Shown: one piece after another, positions 12,001 through 18,000 of the stretch
How positions within the stretch are numbered: position 1 is the stretch's first letter
Layout: each line of letters opens with the position of its first letter
Position numbers: made by a program
UHGV virus genome: UHGV-1672366
Direction: 5' to 3' (one strand)
Source of the DNA: a virus
Length of the DNA stretch: 27,041 nucleotides

Positions 12001-15000
12001 CAATAAGCTACCACGCAAAGAAACAGCACAGGCTCTGTACACCTTCATCGAAAGTCTTCCAACCAAGCCTGCGCCGGTATCGCTTGCTCGATTGCGTGCG
12101 CGACTCAATTTGAGTAGCAGGAATGTAAGCTCGCAGAATCAGACTATACGTAACGGCTTAAAAGCTCTCCAAGATTTGGGCTATCTCGAATACAGCGAGA
12201 TTAAGCGTGGGCGGTCGATCTATATCCAGATTCACAGCCGCAATCCAAAACTCAAAGTCGCACCGCCAAAACCTGAAGACATCGAACCCAAAAAACCAGA
12301 TGAGAAAGCTGGGGAAATTGATGCCAAACAGAACATTATCAACAAGATAACCGAACTTTCGCAGAATTTGACGCCTGAAAATATCAAGATGATTGAGATC
12401 CTTTCCAATAGTCTCAAACTGCTTTGATATGCTGTCAGCGGTGAAAAGTATGCTGTGAACGGTTAAAGATATGCTACCAGCGGTATAGTGAGATGAACGT
12501 ATGCTGTCAGCGGTAAATCATCTATCACCACTCAATGCTCTGTCATACCTCCCCAGTGGTTACTAACCTCGAAGAGTGCATTCCATATAGGTTTGCGCTC
12601 ACTAACATTCTATTGCTATTGCGCTGATTGCTTGTAGTTAAAGGCATTTATTGCCTGCTGCTCCCTGATAGAACGTATGCTGTCAGCGGTGTTTTATTGA
12701 GGAATTTTTGTTTGGATATGCTATCAGCGGTAATTAATGGTATATGTCAGACCTTCGTATGCTGCCAGCGGTAATTTTGTTCTGGTTATACCCATACCGG
12801 TACACATTATTCATGCAATGTCTTAAGTATGCTGTCAGCGGTAAAAAATCGAGTAAAGTATGCTGTGAGCGGTGAGATAGACTCTCGATATGCTATCAGC
12901 GGTAGTTGATTGTGTATGCTGTCAGCGGTGACGACTATGAAATATGACTGCGGAACGTTCCGCAGTCAGTTTGCATTTAGTGTATTTTCTTTAACAGACC
13001 CCAAAGTGTTCCGGCTTTTGTAGTCAGTTTTCCTGTTTCTGGATCGTACATACGCCATTCACGCCGCTGGTGGACGATATACCCATCTTCACGTTCCAGA
13101 CGCTCAAGAATGCCAGGCTGCTTGAAACCCTTAGCACGCCAGTAGCCGCTTGTTTTCTCGATTTCCAGACCTGCCAGTGTTAATGCCATTATCCAACCTC
13201 CTTGCAGTCATCGAAAAGGTAGCTTTGCTGAGAAGCGTGAACGCCATAGAAGCCCTTGTATTTGTTGTATACGAAGTGGTCTTCTCCGACGCCGGTTAAT
13301 TTGCCATTACGGTTTGTGAGATATGGGGATGACAACACTCGATCGTCACGCACAACATAGAACTGGTCGCCGCTGTCTACGACCGTCGCTCCATATGGTG
13401 CTTTTATGACGTCGGTAAGAGCGCCATTCTTAACGTCGGCTACAGACATTTCACACTGATAAACAGTGGTGTCGGCCACAACGATCGAAGAAAGGAACAA
13501 CAGCGCGAATGGGATGGCCTTCATGCTGCCACCTCTTTGATTACATCAAATGCTGAATTAAATACGAGCACGAAAGCCAAAGCGTTTATTACTACGTCGT
13601 TCACCGGGGAAAAGACTTTACGAATGACACCAGTGAAAATGCAGTCGATGACAAAAGCTATTGACACGATGAGTAACAAGTATTCAATAAAAATCTTCAT
13701 GATAGGTAGATACTAACTTATATAAATTTTACTGTAAACTCACTCAAAAGTGCTGATGCTTAAAATACGCTCAAGATGTGCGGCATCTTCATCACTGATT
13801 TGTTGAGTCTCTTCTACGTACCAACAGTTGCCGTTATGCCAACAAACACCATCATCATCAACCATCACTGAATCAGCGTCATGACCTGTATATTCAACGA
13901 GAATACGCTGGATCAGCGCGTCAGTTTCTTCGTCGTTAAGGCCATCGGCTTTGACCATAAAAAGCGGAAACACGTCATAGACAGTGCTGGTAACGATTCG
14001 AACTAAAACTCTCATGTGTTTTTCCTTTTGTGGTTAGTGTTTACTTATTTTGTTAGTTACGAATAGGCGATCAATCTTCTTGTTTAGGGAAAAACTGTTC
14101 AATAACTCTGTCAACGGCTGTGTCTATATGGAGTAGATGCCACACAACCATATCTTTGCTCCCCATGCCTTGTGTGAATATCACGTCATACTTACGCCAT
14201 GCGCAGTGGAACCAATATGCTGAGTCATCAATTGGTAAATCCTCTCCCGCCTCTTTGAAGTATTTCAGCAGCATTGCTTGCTCTGCCGTTGGCGTTGGAC
14301 CTATTTCCTGAGCGTACATACGGATAAATCGCTGCCAGTCTGTCTCGTCAGGTGTTTGATCTGGTGGGGTCATTTCGGCGATAGCGTTTCGTAGCTGATG
14401 CGCCCAATCAGGTTCAGGAAAGCCTTTTGATACTTCATCATCAATAACACCCAGAGCCGCGTTTGCGGCATCGTAGAGTTTCTTAATAGCTGTCATGTTT
14501 TCTTATCCTTTTAAACAAATTGTTTTCTTAATAAGATAATTGCGATAAAAAAGGCGTCCAACTGGACGCCTGAACTTTTTAGGGGAGTTATTTCACTGTA
14601 ATGAAAGGAGTGTTAGCCCCTTGAGTCATGTACTGCGGTAACTGGCCATTCCATTTATTGATGGCTTCCAGTTCCATAACGTTCGGGTTTTGACGCAGAG
14701 CTTCACCGCGCAGACGAATGGCGTCTGCTTCTGCTTGCGCACGAGCACGGATAGCATCAGCTTCACCATTAGCCTGTTCACGCAGCATATTCGCCTCAGC
14801 TTTACGCTGTTCAACTTCCTGTTGACGTTGCAGAGTACGCTGGTTAGCCGTTACTTTGGCGTTGATAGATTCAATGACGGTTTTTGGGTAATCAGGTTTT
14901 CCAACCCATGACAGGCTCAGTACCTCAATACCAACCGGAGACATCTCTTTCTGAATATCTTTCAGTGCGTTGTCCAGCAATTGTGCCTTACCACCGTCGA

Positions 15001-18000
15001 TAAATGAGTCAGTGGTCATACGGCTGGCCAAACGGTTTAGAGAGTCGGCAATTTTCTGACGCAGATCTGATTCGGTGATATCGTCTACGCCTTTGCGATA
15101 GGTCTGGAACACCGTCGTTACCTTGTCACGATTAACCAGATACGCAACGCCAATTTTGTGACCAATAGCAGTACCGTCACTCATCTGGAATGTGAACGGC
15201 TCGTCGTAGGTCTTCATTTGTTTGAAGGTAGGGAATACGTAAAGTTCGGTGTTAAGACCTGTCCATTGGCGACCAACGCCAACCACTTCACCAATCCCTT
15301 TGTCTTCACCTAATTTGTTTACTTTGATGCCAACGTATCCAGGCTCTACGCGATCACAGCCAGTAAGACCCATTGTGCAAATAGCCGCCAGAGCAACTGC
15401 AAGTAAACCTTTCTTCATTACTTATTTCCCCTTTGCTTTGATTAATGAGTTAATAAACTTACGACCAGCAATAAGACCGATTACAGGAGTACCAAAACCA
15501 ACGATAACTCCAAGCATGACGGCCAAATCACTCTTTGCAGAAATCAGCGACGGAACCAGTAATCCGTAGATGAGAGCCACTGAAAGGCCTGTGGCTACTG
15601 CCAATAGATAGATTTTGATCATGTGTTTTCCTATGTGGTTGTTATGCGAAAATGATAAGTAAGTACTTATATATTTTCAAGAGATAAAAAAGGCGTCCTG
15701 TGGACGCCTTGTGTTTACTCTTCTACTGACTCGGTGGGATTGTCTTTTGATCTCCGGTCGTCGATTGCCTGTAAAGCCGCAATGATTTCAGCTAGTGGCT
15801 TCTCCCGATACATCTCGACGATCTGTGATTTGGTGTATTTCTTGTCACCAATTTCTACGCGCCCGCTGGCGTTCTTTGGCAGGTATCCTTCATCCAGCAT
15901 GTACTCGACGAGCGATTCGATAACGTCGAGGCCACGAGTAGGATCGAAGTAGAATTTCCAGGTGCACTTGCCATACGGTGGTGCAACTTTGTTTTTGATG
16001 CACTCTGCGCCTACGTCCTGACCGATCTTCTCTTTACCATCCTTCATCACCGATGCACCGAGACGGATGCGCACAGAAGCGTAAAACTTCGGTGAATCGC
16101 CGCCTGGTGACGTCGTAGGGTCGCCAAACATTACACCGATTTTTGTGCGAACCTGATTCAAGAAGATGATGCAGGCGTTATATTTGCGTGCCCACAAAGC
16201 CAGAGTGGGGAAGTTCGCGCTCGTCGCACGAGCAAGCGCCGTATTGTCGTTCATGTTTAGCTGATCTTTGTCTTTGGCAGTGCCTTCAGCCATCTTTTCG
16301 AACTTCTCGGCTTTGGAGTTCGGAACCATAGACGCAAGTGAGTCAGCCACGATACAGATAGGTGCTGATTCAGGGATAAGCTCTTCATCACGTACCAATT
16401 TAAGTATTGTGCCGATCAACTCTACAGAGTCTTCGAAGGTATCAGGCTGCTTGTATACCCACTGGCCGTCATCCTCATCTGCATTCAGGCCATTGGCTAC
16501 CGCCAGGCCAACGTCAAAACTGTTCTCATGATCGAGGAATACCGCCAGACCATCTTGTTTCTGAGCGGAGATCATTGCTGCTGTTGCCAAAAAGGTTTTC
16601 CCCGCGCTTGGAGGCCCGAATACTTCTACGATACGACCACATGGGAAACCGCCATCGTAACGACCGGAAATAGCTTTGTTTAACGGAGGAAAGCCTGTGT
16701 CAATCCAATGAGTTACTTTCTGAATTTCGTCGTTGCTACCGATTTTCTTTTTCAGAGCAAGTGCCAGTGCGGATTTTCCTTTTGCCATGATCAGGCTCCT
16801 TTTGTTTTGTTGATTCGTTTTAAAGCGGCGGATTCGTCGAATACAATCGCATCGTGGTTAAGGTGTTTGGATACACGAGCGAGGATTTTTACGACCTGCT
16901 CGCTGACTAATCCAAACTCGCGATCTGTCGCTTTCATTCCGGCAGCGCCTAGAATTGACGGCAGTGCGATGACAGCGTACTCACCGTGATAAAAGACAAT
17001 CTCTTTTGCCAGTTGGGTAGGGGTGGTGGTAGCGCCATTAATAATCGATTTAAGCATTAGCAATACCTTTCGAATGGAAGAACAAACACTTCAAGGTCTT
17101 CAAGGAACGAACGGAAATTCAGCTCGTAGCACAGTTGCTCGAATGCTTTCACGTCACGATTGCCTTTGACTGTTTCGATTTCGGTAGGCGGAAACTTCGT
17201 CTCAATCAGGTTCATTAGCGTGATGTTTCTCTTGAACGCTTCGAGCATTCGACAGCCTGTTTTCTCGTTGAAGGCATTCTTCGCTAGTTTGTTGAAGGCG
17301 GTCTTATGACGCCCTTTATTAACCACGATTGAGCCGTCGTTGATGCCGCGTACCATCGTTGCGACACTTCCCCATTCATGCAGCAGCTCTTTCGCGCCGC
17401 CAGCACCAATGCCACCAACACCGCTAATGTTGTCCGAGTTATCGCCTTGTAATGCTTTTGCTTCCAAAAATGCGCGAGGCGTGGCGAATCCTGTCAGCTC
17501 CGCAAATTGCTCAAAATTAACCTGCTTGTTTTTGGCGTCTTCACGCAGGCTTACCCAGCTTACGTTTTCGCGAACTAACTGAAGCCAGTCGCTATCGCCT
17601 GTTAACAGATAGATGTGTTCAACGGTTGGCTGCGGTGCCATGCGGGATACCAGCAGCCCGGCCAGATCATCCGCTTCTGCATCTTTTGCAATGATTTGGT
17701 TAACACCAAGCGCGGTCATCATTTTGAGGATGTATGGCTTCTGGACAGCAAAGCCTTCCTTCATCTTTTTCATATCAGGATCGTCGTCGCGATTTGCTTT
17801 GTAGTCCGGGTAAAAGTCGCGACGCTTGTCACTAAATCCATCCCAAAGAATCATAGGTCGGGCATGGAGGATGGAGGCATAACGACGGACGTTCTTAACA
17901 AAGCCGAAAGCAGCCTGTACTTCCATTTCGCCGTTGTGCAATTTGTCAGATTGTTGGTGGTAATAACCCAGGCTATTGCCATCTACGAAGAGATAATTCA

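Follow-up and report, generated by a model that had tools for sequence, protein, structure and literature searches.

A linked pair of genes for an SPFH lipoprotein and a small membrane hairpin in an SSU5/Cyrano-like Escherichia coli phage-plasmid, with counterparts in other phages and in bacterial chromosomes

Two adjoining genes were identified on the minus strand of a 27,041-nucleotide (nt) stretch of the virus genome UHGV-1672366 (hereafter the window, meaning the whole stretch of DNA that was analysed). The upstream gene (15422-15622) encodes a 66-amino-acid (aa) protein predicted to form a membrane hairpin, and the downstream one (14588-15418) a 276-aa lipoprotein of the SPFH/Band 7 family. 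Both were defined by open reading frame (ORF) calls, the second also by its matches to Pfam Band_7 and to PHROGs family phrog_200. Based on sequence identity, which over this stretch was 94-98% to the Escherichia coli SSU5-like phage-plasmids CMS-2020a, PhiR41_1 and Cyrano and 78% to Salmonella phage SSU5, the window is an SSU5/Cyrano-like E. coli phage-plasmid. The pair is one copy, carried by a phage-plasmid, of a very widespread and uncharacterised set of two genes, most likely a membrane module. The superfamily and the gene annotation were already known; the pair is set apart by the conserved hairpin partner, which is not an NfeD protein, and by its dual distribution in phages and cells.

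The 276-aa protein matched the whole of the Pfam profile Band_7 (PF01145) through residues 23-209, with an E-value of 2.6e-30 and 106.2 bits (cut-off 23.6), and it belongs to phrog_200, "lipoprotein" (E = 3e-108). The NCBIfam models for HflC and HflK (TIGR01932 and TIGR01933) failed, with 30.2 bits against a cut-off of 134.4 and 18.7 bits against 159.4, respectively, as did those for flotillin (Pfam Flot, PF15975, 19.9 bits against 27; NCBIfam FloT, 16 against 700). The protein begins with a lipoprotein signal peptide and lipobox (residues 1-21; 15356-15418, minus strand). The lipobox, L18-T19-G20-C21, fits the pattern [LVI][ASTVI][GAS]C and is followed by Asp22 at position +2 and Arg at +3. 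An earlier note on this DNA, made from the sequence alone, had described an SPFH lipoprotein with an LTGC lipobox, and this description is borne out by the Band_7 match and by the invariance of the cysteine in 12 aligned phage homologues. A lipobox-like motif with its cysteine was present in 87 of 100 distinct relatives. The residues Asp-Arg after the cysteine are typical of enterobacterial copies, Glu stands at +2 in some, and the +3 residue is Lys or Arg in most of the family. Three Sphingomonadales copies (L138, L139 and L143) are without the lipobox cysteine and seemingly keep an uncleaved signal anchor.

In the AlphaFold model of this protein (pLDDT 75, with a core at 84-96) the SPFH domains are accompanied by one helix of 65 residues and another that is short. 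The long C-terminal coiled coil claimed earlier held good as a long helix and was predicted as one helix, residues 179-243 (14690-14884, minus strand; pLDDT 75-91); this segment aligns with the coiled-coil region of HflK and would correspond to the wall-forming helix of SPFH cages. Foldseek searches placed the cages of prohibitin, HflK/C, erlin and stomatin equally close (probability 1.00, E about 1e-12, 15-19% identity) and flotillin, also with a probability of 1.00, somewhat further away. The C-terminal motif E-A-I-x-K-W-x-G-x-x-P was invariant in the 12 aligned phage homologues. With a ratio of nonsynonymous to synonymous substitution rates (dN/dS) of about 0.025 relative to SSU5, the SPFH gene is under very strong purifying selection. 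A PHROGs match to a "protease" family (phrog_11227, E = 2.7e-4) was rejected; it covers only residues 164-257, mostly the long helix. The labels "serine protease" and "transposase fusion protein" found on homologues, for which Pfam gives only SPFH and Flot, were treated as inherited mis-annotations.

The 66-aa protein was modelled by AlphaFold as a helical hairpin with a pLDDT of 92, the helices spanning residues 2-27 and 32-65. The turn motif V-P-S-L-I-S-A-K-S-D occupies residues 23-32, and the C-terminal tail is basic and lysine-rich. The protein belongs to phrog_1130, "membrane protein" (E = 5e-26), which PHROGs places in the category "moron, auxiliary metabolic gene and host takeover", and a Pfam scan at E-values up to 0.1 revealed no family and no NfeD match. 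Both the model and the scan agree with the earlier description of the partner as a protein with two transmembrane segments which is not NfeD. Because the tail is lysine-rich and the turn near neutral, the positive-inside rule would put the two termini on the cytoplasmic side of the membrane and the turn on the periplasmic side. The remote-homology searches and structure predictions that had been recommended for the two proteins yielded a cage-type SPFH architecture and a confident hairpin, with no NfeD domain in the partner.

A HMMER search of 1.84 billion representatives gave 984 clusters in the hairpin family, and the best 150 of the 984 matches were 47-89 aa long. Within the turn, the proline was conserved in 98% and the leucine in 84% of 88 distinct hairpin sequences. 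The dN/dS of the hairpin gene was 0.13-0.22. Relative to Cyrano, the hairpin gene shows a synonymous divergence (dS) of 0.65 and 74% aa identity, next to an SPFH gene with a dS of 0.05 and an identical product; in elements with a 100% identical SPFH protein the hairpins were 74-100% identical, with the core YxLLVPSLISAKSD invariant. A divergent hairpin beside an identical SPFH gene implies a recombination breakpoint between the genes, or allele replacement.

The SPFH lipoprotein was found by tblastn in 413 phage records, including phiP27, Stx2a phages, the P2-like phage P88, N4-like and rV5-like phages, Kolesnikvirus, Bruynoghevirus, a T7-like Desulfovibrio phage, phiCbK, Lak megaphages and crAss-like phages. 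A plain tblastn search of the phage genomes with the 66-aa protein returned SSU5-like elements only; the wider hairpin family became visible because the SPFH neighbours in unrelated phages were read and a profile was built from them. In most phages inspected, a two-helix ORF of 60-110 aa lies directly upstream of the SPFH gene, and the turn motif P-x-[LM]-[IV]-S-x-x-[SD] is common to such ORFs even where identity elsewhere is about 25%. The profile, built from nine of the upstream ORFs and iterated to convergence, had exactly one match on the same strand in 149 of 173 SPFH loci, directly upstream of the SPFH gene in 147, and none elsewhere in those loci. One of the matches is an unannotated ORF in phiP27. 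The window's own hairpin was matched with E = 1.3e-26, its stop codon being separated from the SPFH ORF by 3 nt. Both genes were found together in P2-like, N4-like, rV5-like, T7-like, Vibrio and Burkholderia phages, and in phages the pair is usually located among early or replication genes.

Defining a pair as a two-helix ORF with a P-x-L-[IVF]-[SND] turn, on the same strand as and directly upstream of an SPFH lipoprotein gene, gaps of no more than 18 nt were observed in 96 of 101 distinct pairs, and an ATGA overlap in 27. Gaps as tight as these point to probable translational coupling and a fixed stoichiometry. The diverse set of loci came from a scan of genome contigs; a scan of viral contigs returned only close relatives (at least 77% identity), which confirmed the linkage and added little diversity. 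In phages TL, phiCbK and phiEa104 (L007, L008 and L009) the upstream ORFs are small and unrelated: one has a single C-terminal helix, one three helices and one no membrane helix. On the chromosomes of Shigella flexneri and E. coli (L096 and L097), presumably in prophages, the hairpin gene does not abut the SPFH gene but precedes it at a distance of about 770 nt, something having been inserted between the partners.

The pair was also found in cells. Within a one-genome-per-species collection it was located next to gyrB in nine Sphingomonas-group loci, and near the gene for the small subunit of ribonucleotide reductase (RNR) in nine Dyella-group loci; three Leptospira species also have it, with its surroundings conserved. 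The chromosomal neighbours are housekeeping genes, not phage genes. By this gene order, the pair is also a vertically inherited cellular module in several bacterial genera; regardless of the direction of its transfer between cells and phages, what it does must make sense in an uninfected cell. In E. coli the module was present in 196 of 5,426 complete genomes, in 195 of them on plasmids of about 110 kb, where the genes are annotated as "SPFH domain-containing protein" and "membrane/hypothetical protein". The corresponding annotations in SSU5 and Cyrano are SPFH/band 7 or stomatin-like protein and membrane protein. The earlier note had regarded the module as a candidate for an undescribed one. 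This stood in so far as no functional study was found, but the module is no oddity of this element, being a common phage cassette and a chromosomal pair with a gene already annotated on the 195 plasmids. The papers searched mention the gene in genome descriptions, with speculation about HflK/C only; they contain no description of phrog_200 and phrog_1130 as a linked pair, or of the cellular copies, and neither PHROGs family carries a functional annotation.

Evidence on expression was available from Cyrano, through RNA-seq of E. coli LF82 grown overnight in LB medium or recovered after 6 h inside macrophages (PMC9928086, S1 Table). In LB the hairpin gene CYRAN_56 was at the floor value of 4.99 normalised counts and the SPFH gene CYRAN_57 at 13.9; most Cyrano genes are below about 10-20 under this condition, and the repressor CYRAN_45 is at 96 (PMC9928086). 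Inside macrophages the log2 values were 7.6-7.7 and 7.25-7.4, respectively, a rise of about 10- to 40-fold, while the flanking genes remained flat (RecA, 10.2 counts in LB and a log2 of about 4.0 in macrophages; CYRAN_58, 5.7 counts and about 4.0). Neither CYRAN_56 nor CYRAN_57 is in the authors' list of morons expressed during lysogeny, and no production of Cyrano virions in macrophages was reported (PMC9928086). Because the levels of the pair are uncoupled from those of both flanking genes, these data support an independent, conditionally expressed transcription unit, and they argue against a constitutive lysogenic-conversion or immunity gene.

The layout of the window is in keeping with such a unit. 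The ribosome-binding site of the SPFH gene, AGGGGA (15432-15427), sits within the 3' end of the hairpin gene. The two ORFs share a reading frame, with TAA-GTA between them; read-through of the hairpin stop codon into the SPFH ORF seems unlikely, since the genes overlap in different frames in most relatives. The 92-nt gap between the upstream recA-like gene and the hairpin ORF is occupied by a sigma-70-type promoter-like site on the minus strand, TTGAAA-17 nt-TATCAT (15652-15680), with 10 of 12 consensus matches. It was the top-scoring promoter-like site of the 4.5 kb between 13000 and 17500. As a class such sites were not enriched in this stretch (5 observed, 5.9 expected), so the support for the site at 15680-15652 is its position, the motif which overlaps it, and the expression data.

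This motif is an operator-like near-palindrome, ATATATAAGTACTTACTTATCA (15653-15674, strand not assigned), which covers part of the promoter spacer and the -10 hexamer. Near-palindromes of this type, 20-22 bp in length and with the consensus ATAGGTAAGTACTTAYCTAT, occur in four places in the window, a scan of which gave six strand-matches where none were expected by chance; the operator motif that had been noticed at the promoter was in this way corroborated. The other copies (5538-5561, 10222-10243 and 19167-19190) each lie just upstream of a minus-strand operon and, by comparison with Cyrano, the three operons are those of the RNR large subunit, SbcD and SSB. The near-palindrome was considered as a sign of co-regulation with these replication and recombination operons, a proposal which was dropped.

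An intrinsic-terminator-like hairpin at the end of the recA-like gene (15690-15710, minus strand; a nine-pair stem with six GC pairs, then TTTTTATC) would insulate the module on its 5' side, and another (14552-14571, minus strand; an eight-pair stem with six GC pairs, then TTTTTTATC) lies at the end of the operon. The ORFs, the promoter-like site, both terminator-like hairpins and the Cyrano RNA-seq all agree with the earlier reading of the two genes as an operon in its own right, complete with promoter/operator and terminator. The bracketing terminators have an identical stem and tail, GGCGTCC-N3/4-GGACGCCTTTTTTATC, and are the sole such sites in the window. The common stem and tail could have been left behind when the cassette was inserted by duplication, or may reflect no more than a preferred type of terminator.

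Based on these results, we give an even chance to an arrangement in which an SPFH ring or cage, together with the hairpin, sits on the periplasmic face of the inner membrane and has a generic membrane role. The SPFH protein would be exported and lipid-modified at Cys21, and in enterobacteria the Asp at +2 would probably keep it in the inner membrane. If it behaves like all the full-length SPFH proteins solved, it would use its long helix and C-terminal segment to build a ring or cage, which would lie on the periplasmic side of the cytoplasmic membrane. One translationally coupled mRNA would yield the hairpin in a fixed ratio to the SPFH protein, and the hairpin's short periplasmic turn, P-x-L-I-S-x-x-S/D, is the likely point of contact with the ring. 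The hairpin may serve as an in-trans membrane element, which the SPFH protein lacks, or be the enclosed client, and would so take the place held in other SPFH systems by NfeD proteins or FtsH. The outcome would be a fenced-off patch of inner membrane, partitioned or stabilised. A generic membrane-organising or envelope-stress function is most likely, because the pair is a stable chromosomal feature of some bacteria and is carried by lytic and temperate phages alike. A phage would then carry the pair to maintain a functional host membrane while it replicates or under stress, and not as a device devoted to immunity.

Several observations weigh against this proposal. The literature searched holds no experiment on any member of the subfamily, phage or cellular. 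No hairpin homologue was found in 24 of the 173 SPFH loci, including those of Pseudomonas phage TL, phiCbK, phiEa104 and the Bacteroidales/Alistipes clades; it follows that the SPFH protein does not need this hairpin to function. Most non-enterobacterial relatives carry Ser at +2 (mostly Ser-Lys or Ser-Arg), which is an outer-membrane signal in E. coli, and Arg at +3 may weaken the retention of an Asp+2 lipoprotein in the inner membrane. The monomer model of the SPFH protein is weak at residues 23-60 and 250-276. Finally, the SSB, SbcD and RNR operons which bear the near-palindrome were not raised in macrophages (PMC9928086, S1 Table), and a common motif alone is therefore no proof of co-regulation.

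Among known systems, the HflK/HflC complex of E. coli (7vhq, 7wi3 and 9cz2) shares with the lipoprotein the SPFH1 and SPFH2 domains, a long wall helix, a C-terminal cap segment and a predicted periplasmic position of the SPFH domain; its Foldseek E-value was about 1e-12 and it was the sole sequence match in the PDB. At 15-19% identity, however, HflK/C is heteromeric with N-terminal transmembrane helices, whereas here there are one gene, a lipid anchor and a 66-aa hairpin partner. Prohibitins (PHB1/PHB2 and the bacterial "prohibitin family proteins") resemble the protein in length, about 275 aa, and in domain order. They gave the top Foldseek match (8rrh, E = 5e-13), and a homologue in a T7-like phage was labelled cd03401 SPFH_prohibitin by its depositors; the identity is nevertheless 15-16% and the match no better than that to erlin or HflK/C. 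The anchor of prohibitins is an N-terminal helix, and their partners are m-AAA proteases. In SPFH-NfeD operons (QmcA-YbbJ, 8z5g; YqiK-YqiJ; the archaeal stomatin-NfeD protease) a small membrane protein is likewise encoded directly upstream and co-translated, and the SPFH fold matched with E = 1e-06 (8z5g), but the window's partner has no NfeD/OB-fold domain and is a hairpin only. QmcA faces the cytoplasm, unlike the window lipoprotein, which must face the periplasm. The pair belongs to the SPFH superfamily, phrog_200 and phrog_1130, and it is a member of neither QmcA-YbbJ nor HflK/C, because the partner is without an NfeD domain, the HflK/C models are not matched above their cut-offs and a lipid serves as the anchor. 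The likeness to T4 Imm and Sp, early superinfection-exclusion proteins of which one is a small inner-membrane protein and the other periplasmic, is a functional analogy only; family scans here gave only SPFH and unnamed phage families.

The earlier note had put forward superinfection exclusion or abortive infection. The pair would alter the envelope so as to oppose DNA entry by a second phage, in the manner of Imm and Sp, or would trigger membrane collapse on infection. This would suit two phage-encoded envelope proteins, which in lytic phages lie within early regions among clusters of small membrane proteins and one of which PHROGs assigns to its moron and host takeover category; it would also suit a hairpin gene much more variable than the SPFH gene, with allele replacement beside an identical neighbour. 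The variable positions of the hairpin are, however, hydrophobic helix residues and not the conserved turn, and neither protein matched any defence model of PADLOC-DB v2 at E-values up to 0.1. The genes are at background level in the Cyrano lysogen in LB, unlike the repressor and the toxin-antitoxin morons, and in Sphingomonas, Dyella and Leptospira they are vertically inherited beside housekeeping genes. The low dN/dS of the SPFH gene also argues against direct conflict, the value being lower than is usual for phage-host arms-race proteins, as judged from our experience and not from a comparison set. On balance exclusion or abortive infection is unlikely. The note's other suggestion, a link to FtsH, would make the ring an HflK/C mimic or competitor which binds or displaces the periplasmic domain of FtsH and so changes the turnover of membrane proteins or of lysis-lysogeny regulators. 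It goes back to a distant family resemblance: the topology is predicted to be that of HflK/C, with the SPFH domain periplasmic, the best sequence matches, although below threshold, are HflC (E = 2e-07) and HflK, 7vhq is the one PDB entry found by sequence, and the best structural matches include HflK/C-FtsH and prohibitin complexes. Yet the scores fall far short of the cut-offs (30 of 134 bits for HflC, 19 of 159 for HflK), and erlin, stomatin and flotillin fit equally well in structure, flotillin at the somewhat greater distance given above. There is a single SPFH gene with a lipid anchor instead of an HflK/HflC pair with N-terminal helices, and the gene is common in strictly lytic phages, which make no lysogeny decision. 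The almost constant presence of a membrane partner of its own also makes the hairpin a better candidate than FtsH for the enclosed component, and we consider the FtsH proposal decidedly unlikely.

The lipoprotein might alternatively reside in the outer membrane or in vesicles and act on the cell surface or on an animal host, in lysogenic conversion or virulence, with the hairpin gene as a mere neighbour. Ser, Gly or Thr at +2 in most relatives, the default outer-membrane signal in E. coli, and the induction of the Cyrano genes inside macrophages would be in line with this. So would PM0222, an HflK/C-like SPFH protein from a prophage of Pasteurella multocida, which was found in outer-membrane vesicles and activated TLR1/2 (PMC9872710) and which is likened here by description only. 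The enterobacterial copies carry Asp, or in some cases Glu, at +2, however, and the tight coupling to an inner-membrane hairpin, which recurs across phyla, would be difficult to account for with products in different membranes; the pair is present, moreover, in lytic phages and in environmental bacteria which have no animal host. This makes an outer-membrane role very unlikely. The poorest prospects of all are those of a caged pore-former, that is, a holin-like hairpin held inactive by the SPFH ring until a trigger arrives, in lysis timing or as a membrane toxin-antitoxin. Although in its size, two helices and lysine-rich C-terminal tail the hairpin is reminiscent of pinholins and of class II holins, and SPFH cages are known to enclose membrane proteins, no holin family was matched in Pfam or PHROGs, and the element has a separate lysis cassette (in Cyrano the holin, endolysin and Rz/Rz1 are CYRAN_22-25). 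Chromosomal copies beside gyrB or RNR genes in free-living bacteria also speak against it, and we regard a caged pore-former as highly improbable.

There is a small but real chance that the pair represents an unrecognised class of periplasm-facing SPFH microcompartment without NfeD or FtsH, serving as a host-takeover device of many phage families, for instance by sealing the inner membrane against the DNA of competitors or by restraining a pore-forming hairpin. If so, it would be among the most widespread phage envelope-remodelling systems without a described function. SPFH proteins occur in all domains of life, their textbook partner being an NfeD protein, and recent cryo-electron microscopy has shown that SPFH cages fence off patches of membrane; for most bacterial members we know of neither an enclosed client nor a physiological role. 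The pair offers a simpler, genetically compact case, which has been kept from enterobacterial phages to Leptospira chromosomes and which, given the 413 phage records and the E. coli plasmids, is frequent among phage accessory genes. The induction of the pair in LF82 inside macrophages suggests a condition under which its role may be sought.

In SSU5-like records the pair is flanked by RecA and by a run of small hypothetical genes, and RepA, SbcCD, SSB, an exonuclease and UvsY are also encoded nearby. The recA-like gene upstream of the module (15715-16788) encodes 357 aa in the window and in SSU5. Its counterparts in Cyrano (L001, 9317-11656) and in a Kluyvera element (L094) encode 779-780 aa, and within phrog_9666 it is the C-terminal part alone (profile positions 487-779) to which the window protein aligns. 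The difference in length suggests an insert, possibly an intein or homing element, which is present in some alleles and absent in others. The gene directly downstream of the module (14071-14496) encodes a DUF7238 protein (E = 1.3e-37; phrog_1451). One metagenomic protein (P0018) is an apparent 303-aa fusion of SPFH and DUF7238, which is probably a frameshift or assembly artefact. Further downstream, at 13189-13700, a 59-aa hydrophobic ORF and a 111-aa ORF with a signal-peptide-like N-terminus were identified as homologues of CYRAN_60 and CYRAN_61; promoter-like sites are located at 13738-13699, and a cra-like gene lies beyond the two ORFs. In Cyrano, CYRAN_60, CYRAN_61 and cra were at the floor value in LB and reached log2 8.3-9.0 inside macrophages (PMC9928086, S1 Table). 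The 59-aa and 111-aa ORFs appear to form another group of envelope proteins whose expression is conditional.

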